Sequence record: OK272482.1
Source: Escherichia phage JLBYU08
DNA: 64,000 nucleotides
Direction: 5' to 3' (one strand)
Position 1 is the first letter of the stretch, and each line of letters starts with the position of its first letter. The notes under the pieces are model-generated. The model searched no databases. It had not been told where the DNA came from and worked only from the letters and a program-made list of their open reading frames with translations. This document shows, one piece after another, positions 7,688 to 59,121 of this stretch. The translations under genes were made by a program, and so were the position numbers.

Positions 7688-8506
7688 TTGAGCAAGAAAG
7701 AGTCCAACGACAAATATTACACAAACCCTGAGTATGCAGAATATCTTGTTGGTAAAGTAAAAGATAAGTATGGAAATTGTGCATACGTTGAGCCTTCTGC
7801 TGGAAGGGGTTCTTTTTCAAAACTATTTTCAGAGATACTGTCTTACGATCTAGTACCAGATCCTGAATTTGAAGGACCAACACCGTGCATTCAGGCAAAC
7901 TTCTTGGAGGTGCATCCCAAGGCAGATGTCTTCATAGGTAACCCACCATTTGGCAAGAATTCATCTTTAGCTTGCAAATTCTTTAACCATTGTGCATCAT
8001 TGCTAGAGCTTGGAGGGGCTATAGCCTTCATCTTGCCACGGACATTTGAAAAAATATTTTTTGCAAACAAACTGGACATGTCGATGCACCTTGTCTACAG
8101 TGAAAGGTGCCCTAAGAACTCGTTTCTACTTAATGGCAAACCTTATGACGTGCCGTGTGTTTTCCAAATTTGGGAGAAAAAGGCGTGCAACAGGGATCCT
8201 GTAGAGATTGGGGAGAATAAGTTATTTTCTTTTAGCACTCCAGATGACTACGACTTCTGTGTAAGACGTGTTGGGTATAATGCTGGAAAAGTATTGGGGG
8301 AGGATGACCCAAAATCTGAAGAATCAACATATTTCATAAAATCTTTAGTTGACGGTGTTGACAGAGTGTTTGCTGAATGCTATTCTTCTTTTCAAGAAGA
8401 AGCAGGTAAGACTGCCGGAATGAAGAGTATAGGTAAGAAAGAACTACAATACATTTTGGAGACTAGGTATGATCAAAAGCATAGACTTGACCAAAGAACT
8501 TACTGA
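7688..8506 (+). CDS. N6-adenine DNA methyltransferase (gamma-class order)
   Basis: Motif I VEPSAGRGSF followed by motif IV NPPFGK; start moved to TTG 7688 (RBS GGAGG) because the track start lies inside terminator 7651-7679. Confidence 0.7.
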   Translation: MSKKESNDKYYTNPEYAEYLVGKVKDKYGNCAYVEPSAGRGSFSKLFSEILSYDLVPDPEFEGPTPCIQANFLEVHPKADVFIGNPPFGKNSSLACKFFNHCASLLELGGAIAFILPRTFEKIFFANKLDMSMHLVYSERCPKNSFLLNGKPYDVPCVFQIWEKKACNRDPVEIGENKLFSFSTPDDYDFCVRRVGYNAGKVLGEDDPKSEESTYFIKSLVDGVDRVFAECYSSFQEEAGKTAGMKSIGKKELQYILETRYDQKHRLDQRTY

Positions 8507-8927
8507 TGCAAAAGCTTTTGGTGAGACAGCGGTACAAAGGGGGCAGGCGATGGGACTGGCACTACCTTTCGTATTAAAAGAGCACTTTACAGATTTTCAA
8601 CTTATCAAGGGTGATAAGGGAATGCTTATCCTGGAGCATAAGTTGAGTAAGAAACGCTATAAAGTTGTTTTTAATTCTAAAGCTCCAACAAAACTGGGAT
8701 TCAGAACTTACAATCTTAACCCATCCTACACTAAGGGTGTTGGAAGGGTAGAACAACAGCATTTCAGTGCCAGAGCTTCTTTAGCCCCTTTGATGCTAAA
8801 TTTCTCAGGGGTGGCTTTAGGATACCTTGATAAGAAAAGAGTTCTTCATGTCCGTTTAACAGACTTTGTAACGCTTCTAGCCAACAACGAGGTTGATGAA
8901 AAGGGACGTGTAAAAACAAACTTCTAA
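8469..8927 (+). CDS. hypothetical protein
   Basis: 152 aa; overlaps MTase 3' end; no motif recognised. Confidence 0.5.
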   Translation: MIKSIDLTKELTDAKAFGETAVQRGQAMGLALPFVLKEHFTDFQLIKGDKGMLILEHKLSKKRYKVVFNSKAPTKLGFRTYNLNPSYTKGVGRVEQQHFSARASLAPLMLNFSGVALGYLDKKRVLHVRLTDFVTLLANNEVDEKGRVKTNF

Positions 8928-8954
8928 TAACGCATAGTATGATTGGAGAACGCA

Positions 8955-9146
8955 ATGACACTAAAGTTAACAATTCCAGACAGCTTTTCAGAAGACTTTA
9001 TCCCAGAAATGATGGGTAAGATGCGATCATTGCTTGATCAGATCGAGGAAGCTGTTTGGGAAGACGATGCTGTAGTGGCTAACGAGCTGGTAGATAAGTG
9101 TAAAAGTATTATTGATGCAGTTGAAGAATACCACGGAGGTTTTTGA
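8955..9146 (+). CDS. hypothetical acidic protein
   Basis: 63 aa from ATG 8955 (RBS GGAGA); ATGA-type junction with next gene. Confidence 0.5.
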   Translation: MTLKLTIPDSFSEDFIPEMMGKMRSLLDQIEEAVWEDDAVVANELVDKCKSIIDAVEEYHGGF

Positions 9147-9760
9147 TGGATATTATTGTTCTTAACGCCCCACCCAGCAGTGGTAAGGATCACATTGCAG
9201 ATCTCTTGTTGGAAGCTATTCCTAACTCACACCACCGTGAGGTTAAGGAGATGCTCTTCAGTGTGGCAATTAAGGCAGCTGGTGTAACTCCTCAACTCTG
9301 GAATGCACTTTATGACCGCCACTACAAAGAAGAGCCTTGCCCTTTCTTAATGATAGACGGCAAGCATGTTTCTCCGCGAGAATGGATGATCCATTGTAGT
9401 GAAAATCTGATTAAACCTATCTTTGGTGAAGATGCTTTCGGTAAAGCCGCAGTCGCATCTTTGAAGAAAGATTTCCCTAAAGGTAAAGGGGTTGTTGTTT
9501 ACTCCGATGGTGGATTCAAAGAGGAGCTGGCATGCCTTAGCGAGTACGCGTACAGCACAGGTGGAGATCTGTTGTTGTTCCGTATTCACCGTGTCGGATA
9601 TGACTGGGGAAATGATTCCAGAACCTATCTAAGTCTGGAAAAGAACGGAATAAAAGGAATTGAGTTCGATGTTGTAAACCCTGAAGGTGCACCTTGGGAA
9701 TGTGCATCGGAGATTGTGTGCAAGTATATTGATGCTAAAGAGGCCCAAGAAGAATGTTAA
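9143..9760 (+). CDS. deoxynucleoside monophosphate kinase
   Basis: 205 aa; P-loop NAPPSSGKDHIAD resembling T4 gp1-type dNMP kinases. Confidence 0.65.
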   Translation: MMDIIVLNAPPSSGKDHIADLLLEAIPNSHHREVKEMLFSVAIKAAGVTPQLWNALYDRHYKEEPCPFLMIDGKHVSPREWMIHCSENLIKPIFGEDAFGKAAVASLKKDFPKGKGVVVYSDGGFKEELACLSEYAYSTGGDLLLFRIHRVGYDWGNDSRTYLSLEKNGIKGIEFDVVNPEGAPWECASEIVCKYIDAKEAQEEC

Positions 9761-33462: not shown

Positions 33463-33671
33463 TCAACACACCTGTATCTGAAGAGACATTCAAAGAAGTG
33501 ACCATATGTCCCTTGGCTGAGCCAGGGAAAGAGGAAAACTTCGATTCTGAAGATTCTCCATCTTCGCTACAGGTAGATCCTGAGGCTGATGACCTGACGT
33601 GGGAGGACATCGTAGATATCTGGTTCTCTATTATGCCTGAGCACGAAGAGTTCAGGGGTGGTAGACTATGA
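33459..33671 (+). CDS. hypothetical acidic protein
   Basis: 70 aa from ATG 33459; the track ORF 33258-33671 would include the promoter itself, so it is shortened. Confidence 0.45.
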   Translation: MINTPVSEETFKEVTICPLAEPGKEENFDSEDSPSSLQVDPEADDLTWEDIVDIWFSIMPEHEEFRGGRL

Positions 33672-33791
33672 AGCACCGAGCACACACAGGTTCCTCATGC
33701 TAAAGCATGGCCTGAAGAGGCAAACGTGCATAATTCCTGTGCATTGTGACGTATAAAACCCGTCCACACTCTCATTTTCAGAGGAGATTTC

Positions 33792-34007
33792 ATGAAGATA
33801 GAAATATTTGGTGGAGCTGACAACACTCGTGGCCTGATTTACCTTGAATTCGATGAATCATACCTGCCAGAGGTGTTAAATATAGACTCTGTTGCGGAGG
33901 CTTTGGGAGTAAACCCTAAAGAACTCCACTCTTGTGCTGAGATCGATGGTTGGGAAGAGACCATGAACATTGATTTCAGTGAAGTAGAGGATGAACCGCT
34001 GGACTGA
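33792..34007 (+). CDS. small acidic protein (family A-like N-terminus MKIEIF)
   Basis: 71 aa; RBS GAGGAG; last gene of the + strand block. Confidence 0.5.
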   Translation: MKIEIFGGADNTRGLIYLEFDESYLPEVLNIDSVAEALGVNPKELHSCAEIDGWEETMNIDFSEVEDEPLD

Positions 34008-34134
34008 CACACAATTAGCTGCCCGGCTAAAGTGCTGGAAGCACCTATAACACATCTTTCAACTAAATTTCCTACAACCACAATCACTTACCTCCCACAC
34101 ATGACTGTTTGCTTGTTTAGTGAGCAGTCATGCC

Positions 34135-34162
34135 TTGACATTCTTGCCTATCCTGATAAAAT
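34135..34162 (+). promoter_or_regulatory. sigma70-type promoter firing into ORF-free DNA
   Basis: TTGACA-N16-TAAAAT. No credible ORF for >2 kb downstream. Confidence 0.45.
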
Positions 34163-34357
34163 TAAGTTCTTCTCTTTTCTTTTACCGAGTAATTCGGGTT
34201 TTCTGTTCTCTTCGGTTTGAAGGGGTATGGAGATACACCTGAGTGAACAGGGTGAACAACCGAACATTTGGCTATGGCATTAGCATGGCGAAGCGGACGG
34301 GTGACGAAAGAGGGGCCGGAGGACACCAGTCACTGCCATATGATATATGGGTGATAA

Positions 34358-34900
34358 CCTGAAGAGTCTGAATAAGTGTTTAAGTACCAGTCAGAGGAAA
34401 AGGTGAATGGTAGCCGAAGGGGGAGGGGGGGTTTCTTGTATCTTTAATTTGTATATTATGTATACACTTGTAAACCAATCTCATTTGAATTTGTTTACCA
34501 CACAAAGGGGATAGAGACAAATATTATCTATTAAACTTGAATTATTTATAGAAAATACCACAACACCACTTAAGTCTTTGATTTTACACACAAATCCTAC
34601 AGATATTCACCCTCCATATTTAACATACCTGTAACATATTCCATACCCTACCTGTCTGATCAATTCACCCAACCACACCCTCCATATTTTCCCTGTCTGT
34701 ACCACCCCTGCCCCGCCGGGAGTCCCGTCATATCTGGCTTTCCAGCAAATATCACACCCACAAATATCATTGCCTGAAGAGGGTTTCATCCCATAATACC
34801 TGCCTTACCTGAAGAGCGCTTCATATACCCCGTAAATTTTTTTAATTGACCTCCTCCCCGCCGCCGGAGGGGTCGGCTTTTCCCACACAGGCCTGAAGAG
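34358..34900 (+). repeat. four dispersed copies of CCTGAAGAG
   Basis: At 34358, 34773, 34808, 34892. The two central copies continue as CCTGAAGAG-sGs-TTCAT, 35 bp apart. Confidence 0.6.
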
Positions 34901-35143
34901 TCAGCCAGAAATATTTGAACAGGTCCAGTTATACCACGATTTTGACCTGACCGACAGGGAGGCCCGAAGGGTCTAGCTTTCAGCTAGAGTCCTTGCAGGA
35001 CCTACAGGAGCGCTGCCAGGCGGACGAAATGGGAATACTTCTCATTCTTATAACAATTCTCAAATATCAAGGCAGTGAGGCAAATTAATAGGTGAGGCCG
35101 TTCACATAGTGGCACAACATTTGCAATCTATTTTGTGTGGGGG

Positions 35144-35180
35144 AATGAGAATACATATCATTGTGAGAACCATTATCATT
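35144..35180 (+). promoter_or_regulatory. two tandem TGAGAA-N4-TATCATT boxes (Fur-box-like)
   Basis: aATGAGAATacaTATCATTgTGAGAACcatTATCATTa. Confidence 0.45.
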
Positions 35181-35532
35181 ACGGGCAATTTAACATAATA
35201 CCCATTATACGCACCACTGACGATACATACAGGGATTGATAACATGGGTTACTGTTTACGCATATAACAATTATATTTCTTACTATTTGTGTGGGATATA
35301 GTTAGCAGCCGATAGATTAGATATTGACCTGCGGACTTCTGACCGTCTAGACGTCTAAACGCCCACACAACAAGGCTTATACATACATCGCTGAATGTAA
35401 ACAGGGCCGCAAAAATGCTACCATACCAGATTGTAAATTTTTCATGCAGCACTTGACAAAGAGGAGAAAAACTTGTCTGACACAATATGACATACTGGGC
35501 ACATTAAACACACTTTAGACTTAATTGACATG

Positions 35533-35674
35533 CCTGACTGTTTACGCTGTCACTATTCACGCTATTACTATTCACTCCCTTTACTGTTCACGCTCTTACT
35601 GTTTACATGCTTAATGGTTTACATGCTTAATATACTGCATGTCTAATAGTTTACATAGCTAACTATTTATACAG
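35533..35674 (+). repeat. array of nine contiguous degenerate 14-17-bp units (core ACTGTTTAC / ACTATTCAC)
   Basis: Units start at 35533, 35547, 35562, 35577, 35593, 35610, 35626, 35642, 35659. The core recurs at 35251, 36058 and inverted at 35397. Confidence 0.7.
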
Positions 35675-35683
35675 ATATGATAA

Positions 35684-35908
35684 GCCATGCCATTCGTTTG
35701 CATGTTAATAATTTATGACATAATATAAAAGCAGGGCAACTATTAGCAGATCTATAGTTGCCTTGCTTGTCATGTCATGATTAACTAAATACAAGGCAAC
35801 TATGATCTGATTAATAGTTTGCAGACAAACTATCACGGGGGTGATGGTTACTGCTTTTATATTATGTCGCGACTCCGTCGCGCCATGCCATTCGTTTGCA
35901 TAGTTGCC
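35684..35908 (+). repeat. nested repeat structure (20-bp direct repeat, 16-bp inverted repeat, GGCAACTAT sites)
   Basis: GCCATGCCATTCGTTTGCAT at 35684 and 35882. CATAATATAAAAGCAG 35719-35734 versus CTGCTTTTATATTATG 35851-35866. GGCAACTAT at 35735 and 35795, inverted at 35754 and 35900. Confidence 0.75.
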
Positions 35909-36511
35909 TTATTGTTACAGATAAAATAATTGTATTGTTAATTATTTCTTATCTTTCTCTTAGTCATCTAATGATTCCAGTTAGTATAGTAATGTACAGT
36001 AAACATTAGACGACTAAAGATTTATATGCTTATAATAACTTACAGTGACAATTTCGGACTGTTTACGAAAAATGTTGACACCTGAGCCGATTTATGTTAT
36101 GCAGTTTACACGAATAATTATTTTATGCAGGTATTGACTATTCCGTTATTCCATGGTTGGAATAAATACTTAGCAGTCTATAGAATGGTGACGCTACGTG
36201 AATTCTGGAATTTAGTGGCTATAGTTATACTCGATTTTTCACGTAGAACACGCTTTTGTTAGTGTGTAAGTGTATGACTTATAAAGATTTTTAGTTGTTG
36301 ACAAGATACTGAAGATATGCATCAGGTTAAATTTTGTGCAATAGCGGCATTACGTGCAATTTTGGGAGAGAAAACGGGCAAAAATGGCCTTGCTACCACA
36401 CAATGAAAAATTATGCAATAGTTATTTTCCATGTATATTTGTACAGTGTGTGGGATTAATGGCTAGTCAATTATTCCACTTGCCAGGTAGGGCCGTTTAT
36501 GGTAGGAGAAG

Positions 36512-36542
36512 AGCAGACAAAAAGAAAGGGGCCTAAGCCCCT
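36512..36542 (-). terminator. rho-independent terminator closing the island
   Basis: Minus strand AGGGGC-TTAG-GCCCCT followed by TTCTTTTTGT, 20 nt after stop of 36562 gene. Confidence 0.7.
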
Positions 36543-36561
36543 TGATAATTCAGTTAAAAAA

Positions 36562-36981
36562 TTATAATGATTCGTATATTTCAAAAATCCGATTTGCCAG
36601 GTCGTTACGGTAGCGGAATTTTTCCTCACGTTTGATCATAAGATCTTTATAGCCGTACTCTTTAAGCACTTCATTAACTTTATGGCGGCATACTTTCATA
36701 TTATCCTGCGCGTCACCAATAAATCTGTTGCTATGGTGCATGGCTTTAATTTCTTCTTCCAGGACCAGGGCAACTATGCGGACCGGATCAAGCTGATAGG
36801 CGGTAACATCCATGCGGCATTGTAGACGGCTTTTAACGTCCGCCACCGGATATACTGCAACCTCTTCCCCGTCAACATTGACAATAATTAGTTTACCATC
36901 GATTTCGAATCCTTTCGCCGCCGGACCGTGACAAAAAGCGTTATCAAAGCTATATGCCGGATTATCAGATTTAATGTTCAT
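36562..36981 (-). CDS. hypothetical protein (island)
   Basis: 139 aa; own promoter TTGACA-N17-TATATT at ~37032-37060 (minus); followed by terminator 36512-36542. Confidence 0.55.
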   Translation of the reverse strand: MNIKSDNPAYSFDNAFCHGPAAKGFEIDGKLIIVNVDGEEVAVYPVADVKSRLQCRMDVTAYQLDPVRIVALVLEEEIKAMHHSNRFIGDAQDNMKVCRHKVNEVLKEYGYKDLMIKREEKFRYRNDLANRIFEIYESL

Positions 36982-37127
36982 GGTGTTTTTTTACCTCTCA
37001 GTTAATTTTCTTACAACTTCCCTTCAAAAAAGAATATAGCAAAACTGCCGATCCCTGTCAACCAAGGATAGCATAATTTTTATGTGATCAAGGGGCTTTA
37101 TTGCCCCTGACCATGTAACTTGTTGTA

Positions 37128-37391
37128 TTATTTGTTGCTCATCCAGTTTTCCCAAGCTGCCTGATAATCTGCCTCACTACGGCGGATCTCTTCTTGTTCT
37201 TCAAGTCGGATCTCTTCTTCCAGGTACCCCAAGATGTCAGCCTTTTTGGTCTGGCGTAGCATCCAGTCATCTTTTTTGCGGGTAAAGATCTTATAAGCTT
37301 TCTCGCAAACCTCTTTTTTGCTACCTTTCTGGACTTCCAGAACACGATAAGCCATATATTGAACTAGTTTGAGCTGGTCAAGACGTTTCAT
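37128..37391 (-). CDS. hypothetical protein (island)
   Basis: 87 aa, charged/helical; RBS AAGAGGAAA. Confidence 0.55.
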   Translation of the reverse strand: MKRLDQLKLVQYMAYRVLEVQKGSKKEVCEKAYKIFTRKKDDWMLRQTKKADILGYLEEEIRLEEQEEIRRSEADYQAAWENWMSNK

Positions 37392-56368: not shown

Positions 56369-56697
56369 CATCTGTTCAGGTAGGTCGTTAAGCTACCCCG
56401 CACCATTACGTGCATAGCCATACAGTTTCCTGTATGGATCGGACTACCTCACTGCCTTGGTAACAAGGCACCTCCCATTTCGACCGCACTTGCTGGCCTA
56501 CTCTACTCGCTTCTTCACACCAACCTATGTTGGAGCTATGCTTTCGATAGTCTCTGAACGTTCATCCTCTCGGATGCTTCGCTGCGGATTAGCATATTGA
56601 GCTTTTACCATACTCAGGTGTAAAAGTCAACTTAGCTTTCCCGTCAATTAAAGAGGTTATTCGACATAGATCACTCTATGAAGCCACAATGTTATTT
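56369..56697 (-). ncRNA. group I self-splicing intron (ORF-less) in DNA polymerase gene
   Basis: Minus-strand RNA contains P AAUUGACGGGAAAGCU, Q AAUCCGCAGC, R GUUCAGAGACUAUCG, S GAGGUAGUCCG in order. 5' splice site follows U, with exon CCAU pairing to intron GUGG. Intron ends in G. CAUU can pair with exon-2 GAUG (P10). Confidence 0.8.
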
Positions 56698-59121
56698 ATG
56701 GTAATAGATAATACGACGGACACCTTCATCGTACCACCCACGCTTCACCATTTGGTGGTGCATGAGTATCCCAACTAAGTCACACAACGATGCACCACCA
56801 TTTTGTTGGTATGCATTAAGTAAAGAGTGTTTAGATCGGGTCCAGATGGCATGACCATCAAAAGAGTATATAAACTTCTTACCAGTTGCTTCCCAGAATT
56901 TCTCCAGATCCTCTTTACGCCCCTTAAGACCAGGGTTGGCATCCCAAAGCGCATCGATTACCCTTTGCCCCAACTCTGGAGAGATATCCAGCATGTCTGC
57001 AACTTTATCTTTTTGTGCCCCGTACATAACCCCATACGTGATAGGTTTACCGTCGTTACGGGACACCTCTCTGCCTGCTACTTTTGTATATGCCTCAGCA
57101 TTGTTTTGGTGTGCGTCCCCGTTACTTACAACATCATAATACAAGCCGTTGTCGAACTCAAAGGCACCCCAAGCCCCGATAAGCTGCTCTAAGTTGGACC
57201 CGTCAATACCGATCTCAAAGTATCCTGGAGGAACACCCCACAGACTACGCATCTCTTTACCCATAACCACTTTAGGAGATGGTTTAGGCATGTTTGCACA
57301 AATACTGTGTTTCTGTCGGGAAGTGTTTGTTAGCCCAGAACTTTTAGCAGGAAGCTTATGGTCAATCTTCAAACGTGGGTGATTAAGAAGACCAGTATCA
57401 ACCTTATCCTCCTTGATTGGATCAAGGACCGATCTGCGGTTTCGCAATGATAACCACAAGACGATATCTTTAGCCATCTCTCCGTTCAATTTTTCAAGAT
57501 TTGGGCATAGGTGTCCAAACGTATCTTTCAGCTGCGGAGAAGTAATAAGTGCTCTGGCTTTTCTACGTATTTTCCCGAATACTTCCTTTTTAATCCTTTC
57601 GGAGTTAGGAAAGCTTCGGAACTTGTGCACGGTTGTCTGAAACTTAGCATCAGTTTTGTTCCAGAAGTTGATAATCAGGTCACAATACTCTGACTCTAAA
57701 AGCTCGTCCATGTATGCATATACTCGTGCATCAACATCTGCATCAGGTAGAGCTTTCTTCTTGCTGTCTTTAGTTACATCCTTAGTTCTCCACATTGTCG
57801 GAAGCCAACCAGCACTGATCAGGTATCGCTTAATGTCGTCCTGATTGCTGATTTTCATAGGTATCTTGCAGTCCGGCATTCGCTTCTGCTGTAGATCACT
57901 TATTGCCTGATCCATCAGCTCTTTAGGTAAAGGTTGTGGTGTGGAAGTGCCCTTAATATAGCCTCTCAAGAAATCAGCCATCTTATCAGGGTCTTTGCAG
58001 CCCATCTCTTCACACCATTTTATCCCCATCTTGCTGACATCTCCTGTGGAGGTAAATGCTCGCTTAGGCGGGGCTTTGAACTCCAAAGCACTCATGTCCA
58101 CAGGATAGCCAAGCTTATCTTTTAACCATTTCCAACCATTGTTGGAGATTGTCCCATCTTGGTTAAACGGCTTTTCAGGGAACTTGGGCCGCTGAGACAT
58201 TGACAGCTCTTTTAAAGGAAGTTGAGGTTCAACACGATCAGCGATTTCTTTCATCCACGCATCGCAACGGTCACGTAAAGCAATAGCTCCATCTATGTCG
58301 AAGTATACACCCTGACGGGCCTGCAGCTCCATCAGGAAGTGCTGCAGCATGCCTCGACGTAGTGCGTTCTTCCAGGTGATCTTCTTGAACCCTTTCGGCT
58401 TCTCTTTGGCTGGATCGTACATAAAGTTCTGCATGTCAGATTTGCCGTAGAATACACCTTTTGATTCCGCTACCAGCTCTTTCCAGAGCAGCTCCTGGAT
58501 GATAACGTCCTCGAATACACGATCCACATACTTCCACAACGGAAGATCGCGCCAGTCATCAATTTGAACTTTCTGGTTACCAAGGGCGTAGCCCCATGCC
58601 ATAAGGCCGTGAGGACCAACAGGCTGCATTTTCTTAGTAACCGGGTTGAATACAGAGTCCGGACAACCTTTTGGTAAAGGGCGATCAGGCCACAAGATTC
58701 GGCTCATCGCCAACGTATCAAACAGGTTAACCTGGTGGTCGTTGATAGTCCCCATACATTTAGGATCACGGAACATATCAAAATGAATACCGGATAATCT
58801 CTCCATCAGCATAAAGTCATAACTGTAGCAGTTATGGCAGTTCAAAGCTGTTGGTGACCAGTCGGAATTGCCTGTAAGCCAACCCTCCAACTCTGAAAAA
58901 TCTGCTATGCGAACTTCAAAATCTTTATAAAAAGTTTTCTTTGCCAGAATAAAGTTCTTAGCCTTCTCTATATCCTCTTCGGAGTAGTGTGTGCGGTCAT
59001 TTAGAGGAAGGAACAGCATAAAACGGTTCTTATTCAGCTCTTTAAACAGGCCGCAGTGATAATAAAGATCTGGGTCTTCCAGCAAACCGGATGACTCAAA
59101 ATCGAACGACCACATGCTCAT
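56698..59121 (-). CDS. DNA polymerase (family A) with 3'-5' exonuclease domain, exon 1
   Basis: 808 codons up to ...RRIIYYH; Exo I FDFESSG at N-terminus. The unspliced reading adds K* from intron sequence. Confidence 0.85.

Follow-up and report, generated by a model that had tools for sequence, protein, structure and literature searches.

The sole large gap free of open reading frames (ORFs) in the stretch of Escherichia phage JLBYU08 analysed here (64,000 nucleotides of record OK272482.1; hereafter the window) spans 34008–36561, is 2.55 kb long and is flanked by convergent gene blocks. A preliminary description of the window had drawn attention to its left part, 34008–35130. We now consider it probable that this left part forms the non-coding arm immediately inward of the virion genome's right end, next to a direct terminal repeat (DTR) of the T7 type, and that it carries a putative structured RNA (module A) followed by C-rich subterminal DNA with an ordered set of motifs (module B).

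JLBYU08 is a Vequintavirus (rV5-like) coliphage. A megablast search with 33700–36900 matched 166 phage records, 92 of which cover at least 80% of the query; nearly all of these 92 are Vequintavirus coliphages, at 90–96% identity. In rV5 itself the equivalent gap lies between ORF163 and ORF164 (104014–106617) and is 89% identical to window 34008–36561. On the rV5 genome map it is drawn as a grey box labelled "non-coding", with no explanation (Kropinski et al. 2013, PMC3606486), and this sole large non-coding region of rV5-like genomes has stayed unexplained since. The same paper expected bidirectional terminators within the box and reported that a change in GC skew at 104425–105475 coincides with the switch of transcription direction (PMC3606486). 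Three papers on rV5-like phages (PMC3606486, PMC7471380, PMC6563267) do not link the box to the genome ends and describe neither the RNA element nor the repeat modules, and sequence records annotate in the gap either nothing or small ORFs that are mutually inconsistent. Both the box and the relatives' short terminal repeats have been published before; their connection and the internal anatomy of the gap are what we add.

Genome ends and the direct terminal repeat

Complete genomes of close relatives have their ends in this gap. The Gotham record (MT682716) has a repeat_region annotated at 1–459 and 136567–137025, and in the HdK5 record the initial 459 nt are duplicated identically at the end. 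The ends of both align to window 35019 and 35477 with identical boundaries, the repeat beginning with GGCGGACG on the left and closing with ...AAACTTGTC on the right. In a sensitive blastn search with the gap as query, position 1012 of the query is the first base of several complete-genome records and 1470 the last base of others, equivalent to the same start (35019) and end (35477) in the window; these records come from independent laboratories. Terminal repeats have been published for Gotham, EdH4 and HdK5, given as 459 bp (PMC7471380) or 458 bp (PMC6563267), the latter worded for EdH4 and HdK5 as "short terminal redundancies of 458 bp". Klebsiella phage KPP-1, from another genus of the Vequintavirinae, has a 514-bp DTR that was classed as T7-type from read coverage and PhageTerm (PMC9862379). 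The KPP-1 repeat sits in the equivalent gene-poor gap between convergent blocks, and its right end, CTTGACAAGGAGAGAGAATTGTGT, is recognisably homologous to CTTGACAAAGAGGAGAAAAACTTGTC in the window.

Because the record ends and the published repeats of relatives map to the same boundaries, the assignment of 35019–35477 as the DTR, and of 34008–36561 as the concatemer junction, is strongly supported by homology. To judge from the relatives' ends, the repeat is exact and has defined boundaries at both ends of the virion genome, as in a short-DTR junction of the T7 type. The TerL and TerS genes lie outside the 64-kb window. The interval singled out earlier, 34008–35130, corresponds to the arm left of the DTR and overlaps the repeat by 112 bp (35019–35130); the features reported for it are present, but the region of interest extends to 36561.

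Conservation across the gap

In an alignment of 15–16 Vequintavirus sequences, the non-coding DNA of the gap is conserved about as much as the flanking genes, with mean pairwise identities of 0.82 in the right arm, 0.89 in the DTR and 0.84 in the upstream coding DNA. Two departures stand out from this profile. Directly outside both DTR boundaries there are hypervariable, indel-rich spots (34950–35009 and 35490–35670); on the left side, 34950–35018 falls to a mean pairwise identity of 0.10–0.33 with about 66% gaps, and closes with a conserved ...ACAGGAGYGCTGCCAG right before the cut. Conversely, 34110–34410 is near-invariant, at a mean pairwise identity of about 0.99 versus 0.82–0.89 for the remaining gap. 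This part contains the core of module A, for which all 118 phage-collection records that carry it are at least 95% identical, 58 of them at least 99%, whereas the whole gap is only 86–94% identical among phage records.

Module A has also been found in a second, divergent clade. The IMG/VR contig L008 holds a diverged copy, with about 77% identity in patches, and pattern scans of viral and metagenome contigs together with an nhmmer profile screen brought the divergent clade to eight module A variants. Exact-pattern scans of viral and metagenome collections gave these two clades only, most other hits of the scans being chance matches that the nhmmer screen removed, and blastn with the divergent element found no cultured representative of its clade. 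KPP-1 lacks module A and has features of module B.

The divergent clade differs in what separates the two modules. In L008 a gene for a 256-aa HNH_3 homing endonuclease (8716–9486, + strand of the locus, − strand in window orientation) lies between the terminal G-run of module A and module B, and other members carry 0.6–0.9 kb of extra DNA at that place. A 104-aa ORF on the opposite strand of L008 has no Pfam match.

A candidate structured RNA gene upstream of the repeat

Module A (34135–34431) consists of a promoter and an element of about 265 nt that ends in G5AG7. The promoter, TTGACA-N16-TAAAAT, had already been recognised as pointing into DNA without genes; it matches the sigma-70 consensus at 11 of 12 positions, has a TG before the −10 hexamer that makes it an extended −10 promoter, and is among the two best promoter-like sites in 33500–37200. 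Transcription is predicted to start near 34169. Neither hexamer varies among the 15 aligned full-length Vequintavirus sequences, and the divergent clade has an extended −10 promoter of its own (TTGCAA-N17-TGnTATAAT) at the same distance from the element, so that a conserved promoter accompanies the element in both clades.

Directly before the −35 hexamer stands the inverted repeat CATGACTG-N17-CAGTCATG, which hardly varies across 15 relatives. It may serve the upstream + strand block as a terminator-like hairpin, or act as an operator. In the divergent clade a different inverted repeat (ATACCTAC...GTAGGTAT) occupies the same place.

Beyond the promoter, the two clades share a pyrimidine leader, the islands TGAGTGAACAGnGTGAACAnCCGAA and GTTTAAGTACCAG, and the terminal G-run, which reads G5–7 A G5–7 in Vequintavirus and G4–6 TA/TG G5–6 in the divergent clade. 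The element is strongly biased in composition: purines make up a fraction of 0.641 at 34210–34440, which ranks within the top 0.2% of windows of that size across the 64 kb, and GC skew passes from +0.33 in this purine-rich part to −0.54 in the pyrimidine-rich part that follows. The G-run varies in length among otherwise identical elements (G5AG7, G6AG6, G5AG6, G7AG6, G5AG5), which could stem from real slippage or from sequencing errors in homopolymers. Two copies of GTGAACA (34243–34258) lie in the best-conserved island of module A; this is the reverse complement of the core TGTTCAC of an iteron-like array right of the DTR, and sharing of this 7-mer may be chance or may mark a common protein-binding site.

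Base pairing was followed by RNAalifold on the joint alignment, by explicit listing of the helices and by counting pairs in the divergent clade alone. RNAalifold, applied to both clades jointly, predicts 47 pairs, of which 10 are changed on both sides. Helices P1, P3 and P5 still pair in both clades despite changed sequences: P1 is CCGA/UCGG in Vequintavirus and CCAGAA/UUCUGG in the divergent clade, P3 is UAUGGCA/UGCCAUA and UAUCGCA/UGCGAUG, and P5 is UCUGA/UCAGA and AAUAGCG/CGCUGUU, respectively. Five distinct variants of P5 occur within the divergent clade, all of them paired. In that clade alone, 99.4% of cells are paired, as against 48–57% in controls with the partner strand slid; helix 5 has two compensatory pairs, and the observed covariation was reached by 3 of 500 shuffles.

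Many of the pairs are G-U and can form on the + strand only, since the opposite strand, like a DNA cruciform, would have A-C in their place; the + strand, which is also the promoter's strand, is therefore the likely RNA strand. The folding z-score points the same way, at −1.42 for the + strand versus −0.12 for the − strand. Indels between the clades measure 1, 1, 5, 1 and ~19–25 nt; as these are not multiples of three, module A has no conserved reading frame. Compensatory, strand-specific pairing of the kind expected of a structured RNA gene is thus present, as judged on two clades.

No described family accounts for the element. Across the whole window, Rfam 15 (4227 models, including pRNA, 6S, tmRNA, ribozymes, GOLLD/ROOL and RNAI) gave at the gathering thresholds a group I intron outside the gap and no match to module A, and at E <= 10 the interval 33950–36650 gave a chance miRNA match in the left arm only. 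No tRNA or tmRNA genes were found. A host or plasmid source was set aside, as no homologue of module A occurs in 5,426 complete E. coli genomes, the plasmid collection not having been searched. The records that carry module A have no feature annotated over it.

Since pairing is kept by compensatory change and on the + strand only, 34169–34431 looks like a new structured non-coding RNA gene with a host-type promoter. The candidate RNA is best called a new family. A non-coding RNA was one of three explanations proposed in the preliminary description for the whole of 34008–35130; conservation, compensatory pairing and the promoter support it for 34169–34431 and not for the entire stretch. Comparison across relatives, which had been suggested as a check, agrees with this, with the near-invariance of 34110–34410 (about 0.99) and the retention of promoter and pairing in the divergent clade.

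The AT-rich spacer and the C-rich subterminal DNA

The succession of purine-rich, AT-rich and pyrimidine-rich DNA noticed earlier is real. Directly after the G-run the GC content drops to 0.22–0.26 across the first 60–160 nt (0.267 at 34440–34600), and in the divergent clade it is about 0.27–0.35 over the 60 nt that follow the run. A conserved block within this spacer has a similar counterpart in L008. At 34600–34900 the purine fraction is 0.389, within the bottom 0.7% of equal-sized windows.

The reported repeats are also present, with CACCCTCCATATTT at 34608 and 34676 in this pyrimidine-rich part and four copies of CCTGAAGAG in 34008–35130 as a whole (34358, 34773, 34808 and 34892), a further copy lying just upstream at 33711. 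Across the window CCTGAAGAG occurs seven times, always on the + strand, versus 0.48 ± 0.77 in shuffled sequence, where none of 100 shuffles reached seven. An unbiased k-mer count finds several repeat families concentrated in the gap, with copies in the gap and elsewhere in the window numbering 4 and 0 for ACTGTTTAC, 4 and 2 for TCCCACACA, 4 and 3 for CCTGAAGAG, 4 and 2 for GGCAACTAT, and 3 and 1 for CAAATATCA. The gap copies of TCCCACACA, at 34093 and 34881 on the + strand to the left and at 35288 and 36447 on the − strand to the right, mirror each other about the left part of the DTR.

Module B presents its motifs as an ordered series: C-runs with GGAGTCCCGT, two copies of CAAATATCA, CCTGAAGAGGGTTTCAT and a second copy, a T-run, a C-run hairpin, and TCCCACACA followed by a third CCTGAAGAG. 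These motifs are colinear in the divergent clade. Just left of its DTR, KPP-1 has looser versions, with CCTGAAGTG, repeats of AAAATATCA and a C-run hairpin; because it has these features without module A, the two modules are separable.

Neither strand of module B shows an RNA-folding signal (z = −0.80 and −0.25), and we rejected a role for it as RNA on this ground. C-run hairpins occur in three lineages, yet individually they are not statistically significant. The idea that the purine-rich and pyrimidine-rich halves form one unit, a "strand switch", was not supported either: a long hairpin between the halves reaches −123.3 kcal/mol versus −122.4 ± 7.4 kcal/mol for composition-matched shuffles, with 90 of 200 shuffles equalling it, so that the halves are not specifically complementary and are better regarded as separable modules. 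There is strong support for the view that what is conserved in module B, and in the arrays on either side of the DTR, is the set of motifs and not an RNA fold, and module B is probably a protein-recognition landscape for DNA packaging. The earlier suggestion of a packaging-related site therefore applies to the pyrimidine-rich part that bears CCTGAAGAG, as subterminal DNA abutting the DTR, and not to the whole stretch.

Arrays right of the repeat

On the far side of the DTR the cut itself marks the start of TGACA repeats, and an iteron-like array of the ACTGTTYAC type comes next. Across 12 relatives the copy number and sequence of these arrays vary, even between near-identical phages, and the motif persists in all. 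The composite element next to them is built from a perfect 20-mer direct repeat, GCCATGCCATTCGTTTGCAT (35684 and 35882), that brackets a perfect 18-nt inverted repeat (35717–35734 / 35851–35868), and also holds four copies of GGCAACTAT/ATAGTTGCC. JEP1, A147 and EPFV3 have insertions inside it, and in Murica a − strand terminator is annotated in its area. The coordinates of all features are collected in Table 1.

The tandem repeats at 35537–35680 lie beside an AT-rich tract (GC 0.28–0.33 at 35900–36300), as they would in an iteron-type origin. Such an origin would also be expected to have DnaA boxes or a cognate initiator gene, which we did not find; no exact TTATNCACA occurs in the gap, and a DnaA-box origin in this phage was ruled out on that basis. 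L008 has three perfect DnaA boxes, TTATCCACA, in direct orientation within about 45 bp (~7840–7885, − strand of the locus), inside or close to what corresponds to the DTR in the divergent clade.

Table 1. Positions of the features in and around the gap, in window coordinates
Feature	Position	Strand	Basis or remark
Last + strand ORF before the gap	33792–34007	+
Inverted repeat CATGACTG-N17-CAGTCATG, directly upstream of the −35 hexamer	34100–34132	+	sequence
Sigma-70 promoter TTGACA-N16-TGaTAAAAT, extended −10	34135–34162	+	consensus match
Candidate structured RNA, ~265 nt	34169–34431	+
Closing helix, pyrimidine leader / purine and G-run	34169–34184 / 34417–34431	+	predicted
Hairpin P1	34185–34188 / 34194–34197	+	predicted
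Hairpin P2	34199–34213 / 34219–34233	+	predicted
Invariant island TGAGTGAACAGGGTGAACAACCGAA	34240–34264	+
Long-range stem P3	34273–34279 / 34334–34340	+	predicted
CCTGAAGAG copy inside module A	34358–34366	+
Hairpin P5, presenting the invariant loop GTTTAAGTACCAG (34378–34390)	34367–34371 / 34391–34395	+	predicted
G5AG7 run GGGGGAGGGGGGG	34419–34431	+
AT-rich spacer, directly after the G-run	34432–34600		composition
Conserved block in the AT-rich spacer	34530–34589		conservation 0.97–1.0; similar block in L008
Module B, C-rich subterminal DNA with ordered motifs	34600–35018 (motifs 34600–34949)	+
CACCCTCCATATTT, two copies	34608, 34676	+
CCCCTGCCCCGCCGGG	34705	+
C-runs and GGAGTCCCGT	34705–34730	+
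CAAATATCA, two copies	34746, 34761	+
CCTGAAGAG, three copies in module B	34773, 34808, 34892	+
C-run hairpin	34850–34876	+
TCCCACACA, then third CCTGAAGAG	34881	+
Hypervariable, indel-rich segment directly outside the left DTR boundary	34950–35018		relatives' alignment
DTR, 459 bp	35019–35477		alignment with ends of Gotham and HdK5
Promoter-like site TTGTCA-N18-TACAAT inside the DTR	35459–35430	−
Hypervariable arrays right of the DTR	35478–35683	+	mean pairwise identity 0.08–0.63
TGACA repeats, beginning exactly at the cut	35478, 35488, 35526	+
ACTGTTYAC-type iteron-like array, ~15–16-bp spacing	35537–35680	+
Composite repeat element	35684–35917
AT-rich left-arm DNA, GC 0.28–0.39, without conserved ORF	35900–36525
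Intrinsic terminator of the − strand block, AAGGGGCTTAGGCCCCTT then T-run	36526–36543	−	annotated in Murica, Gotham, HdK5
ORF164, next credible gene after the gap, first of the − strand block	36562–36981	−

The gap does not code for protein

After the stop codon at 34007 no credible ORF had been seen, and this holds up to 36561, the longest ORF inside the gap having 78 codons' worth of protein (78 aa). It is very improbable that the gap is decayed coding DNA or that it hides overlooked small genes. The records of Murica, Gotham, JEP1, rV5_ev and others do annotate 40–90-aa 'hypothetical proteins' here, but these annotations are inconsistent from record to record, and the annotated ORFs are mostly broken in relatives. 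Across 15 relatives we examined conservation of the reading frame and bias towards change at the third codon position. The small ORFs of the gap are interrupted in most relatives or lack such a bias: ORF 34607–34789 (−) is intact in 3 of 15, ORF 35249–35485 (−) in 4 and ORF 36354–36536 (+) in 5, unlike the control gene ORF163, which adjoins the gap, is intact in 14 of 15 and has 7, 3 and 26 variable columns at the three codon positions. ORFs within module A persist merely through its sequence invariance, and their frames are lost in the divergent clade. The gap is non-coding in every Vequintavirus relative examined; ordinary genes at this position in relatives, which would have pointed to decayed coding DNA in JLBYU08, were not found. 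Small ORFs and decayed genes were ruled out by these two tests, and hidden coding in the gap is essentially excluded.

Proposed arrangement and alternative readings

Read along the concatemer, the junction would consist of the last + strand gene, module A, the AT-rich spacer, module B, a variable segment and the DTR, and then of the TGACA and ACTGTTYAC arrays, the composite repeats with AT-rich DNA, and the terminator of the − strand block. In the scheme that we propose, host RNA polymerase would transcribe the module A RNA toward the genome end; terminase, possibly with host DNA-bending proteins, would recognise module B and the arrays flanking the DTR; and the repeat would be restored, in the manner of T7, by sequence-specific cuts at 35019 and 35477 and by strand-displacement synthesis.

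Several points weigh against parts of this scheme. Terminase recognition of module B or of the arrays is something that we purely infer, and the position of the DTR in this isolate is taken from homology, the mean pairwise identity being about 89% and the boundary sequences the same. For the RNA, covariation comes from two clades and slight within-clade variation, which amounts to few independent events, and the folding z-score of module A is modest (−1.42). The closing helix of leader and G-run joins a pyrimidine tract to a purine tract, a pairing easily kept by chance. There is no clear 3' terminator common to both clades, and we found in the literature no transcriptome, small RNA (sRNA) report or origin mapping for the Vequintavirinae.

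As to what the candidate RNA would do, we slightly favour, as a tentative choice, a cis-acting role in which it forms an R-loop that opens or primes the DNA for a T7-like replisome, because of the conserved G-run, the adjoining AT-rich DNA and the nature of that replisome. A G-rich transcript with a conserved G-run beside AT-rich DNA would form the R-loop, the G-run having two possible partners, the pyrimidine leader of the same RNA and the DNA template. A family-A DNA polymerase is encoded in the window, and a gp4-type primase-helicase has been reported for rV5 (PMC3606486). The more specific idea that module A is a primer or origin RNA, an analogue of ColE1 RNA II that sets the start of replication in a 137-kb lytic myovirus, seems to us rather unlikely. 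It would require a persistent R-loop of G5AG7 at the edge of the AT-rich unwinding element, about 600 bp from the DTR, with pairing of the G-run to the pyrimidine leader acting as a switch.

The promoter, the G-rich segment (purine fraction 0.64) and the AT-rich element expected of an R-loop origin are all present at the level of sequence, but an antisense regulator of the ColE1 type is not apparent, as no promoter-like site was found on the − strand within 34170–34440. Against an R-loop, furthermore, the AT-rich tract is merely about 60 nt long in the divergent clade before the inserted DNA, and, because KPP-1 lacks it, module A is not essential to the replication and packaging scheme of the subfamily.

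That KPP-1 packages by a DTR without the element makes module A look accessory, and this fits a reading that we hold to be about equally likely as a cis-acting role, although by itself it too is doubtful: a structured RNA acting in trans, as a decoy, sponge or regulator directed at a host or defence target, either protein or RNA. Host RNA polymerase would make it early, its position at the genome end would be incidental, and the G-run would be the 3' strand of the closing helix. The strong host-type promoter with no ORF downstream agrees with this, as do the invariant single-stranded motifs GUUUAAGUACCAG and UGAGUGAACAGnGUGAACAnCCGAA, carried on stems that are free to vary, a pattern typical of RNAs that bind a partner. 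On the other hand, no target or partner has been identified, the element is dissimilar to any Rfam family (including 6S, tmRNA and pRNA) and has no terminator of the Hfq type, and the retention of both G-run and AT-rich DNA in the two clades would be left unexplained.

Transcription as such, and not its product, might instead open or mark the junction for terminase cutting and duplication of the repeat. The promoter at 34135 is directed towards the DTR, from which it is separated by some 860 bp free of genes, and relatives use T7-type DTR packaging; at the right end of T7 the phiOR promoter and the pause at the concatemer junction offer a precedent. We find this explanation quite unlikely, as 265 nt of sequence that is near-invariant and preserves a structure would be superfluous for transcription alone, the divergent clade tolerates insertions of 0.6–0.9 kb before module B, among them an HNH gene on the opposite strand, and KPP-1 has no such promoter. 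Even less probable is that module A serves at the DNA level as a platform for proteins, for instance at sites of the TGTTCAC type, its apparent pairing being coincidental. The extreme conservation of the sequence itself, the two GTGAACA copies in its most conserved island, which are the reverse complement of the iteron core, and the abundance of DNA repeat families in the gap would suit such a platform. However, P1, P3 and P5 alter their sequences yet keep pairing, the pairs include many G-U, which a DNA cruciform or the opposite strand would turn into A-C mismatches, an extended −10 promoter is conserved at a fixed distance, and GTGAACA is only a 7-mer.

Comparison with known systems

The T7 junction combines short exact terminal repeats with arrays of short repeats and has the phiOR promoter upstream of the right repeat. 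The junction described here resembles it in the exact 459-bp DTR, which has fixed ends in relatives and a non-coding location (packaging in KPP-1 having been called T7-type by PhageTerm), in the short-repeat arrays on both sides of the DTR, and in the promoter several hundred bp upstream that points at the repeat. The replisome, with a family-A polymerase and a gp4-like primase-helicase (the latter reported for rV5), is a further likeness. Unlike T7, this is a 137-kb myovirus without a phage RNA polymerase, the promoter being of the host sigma-70 type; the gap is far larger at 2.55 kb, the candidate structured RNA gene has no T7 counterpart, and the repeat motifs are unrelated. The packaging junction is, in our assessment, a new, much larger and more elaborate variant of the T7 type, in a myovirus that uses host RNA polymerase.

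T7, T4 and ColE1 start replication from a transcript beside an unwinding element, and module A bears a likeness to ColE1 RNA II, to T4 oriF/oriG, to the T7 origin and to the G-run of mitochondrial CSB II. The features in common with these R-loop origins are a promoter without an ORF, a G- and purine-rich transcript that is predicted to be structured, a conserved G5AG7 at the 3' boundary and AT-rich DNA directly downstream. The differences are that no antisense regulator of the RNA I type was found, that KPP-1 lacks the element and that the AT tract is short in the divergent clade. With the pRNA of phi29 module A would share the character of a structured phage RNA near a genome end, with an early host-type promoter (here predicted); unlike pRNA it has no match to the Rfam pRNA model, and the ends of phi29 are protein-primed and not DTRs. 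The direct repeats of 9–16 bp with regular spacing, in arrays that adjoin the AT-rich tract and the cut sites, recall iteron origins and terminase sites such as the cosB R sites of lambda and the pac boxes of SPP1. They depart from these in that the copy number of the arrays is very variable among near-identical phages, and exact DnaA boxes are absent from the gap here, with three in L008.

Phages of the rV5 type have been isolated widely, and pathogenic E. coli is typed with them and controlled by them. Assignment of the genome ends gives a rational start point for genome records, and the map of the gap shows where payloads should not be inserted when rV5-like phages are engineered. The candidate packaging signals could be used for transducing or packaging vectors, and the ultra-conserved RNA candidate would constitute a new family with a testable structure. 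Were module A a primer or origin RNA, a replication origin would be defined for the first time in the Vequintavirinae, and the RNA would represent a new class; in that case, or if it acted as a decoy against the host, the start of replication or the takeover of the host in this subfamily could be approached directly by experiment.

Additional observations

A self-splicing intron appears to interrupt the gene for the family-A DNA polymerase, since an 809-aa ORF (56692–59121, − strand) matches only part of the family-A DNA polymerase profile and a group I intron (Rfam RF00028, 72.5 bits) lies at its 3' end, at 56419–56707 on the − strand.

A Pfam search with the proteins neighbouring the gap gave no match, ORF164 included. 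ORF164 is entirely absent in FV3, Gotham, HdK5 and rV5_ev146 and is accordingly regarded as an accessory gene bordering the junction. A 153-kb contig (IMGVR_UViG_3300014004_000001, L010) encodes a homologue of ORF164 with 88% amino-acid identity; as its gap-side DNA is wholly different, the gene also exists outside the junction context.

About 20 records named 'Campylobacter phage' (MG0656xx) are 90–96% identical to this E. coli Vequintavirus. At least one of them is marked UNVERIFIED and several are unannotated, and these records are probably mis-assigned or contaminant assemblies.

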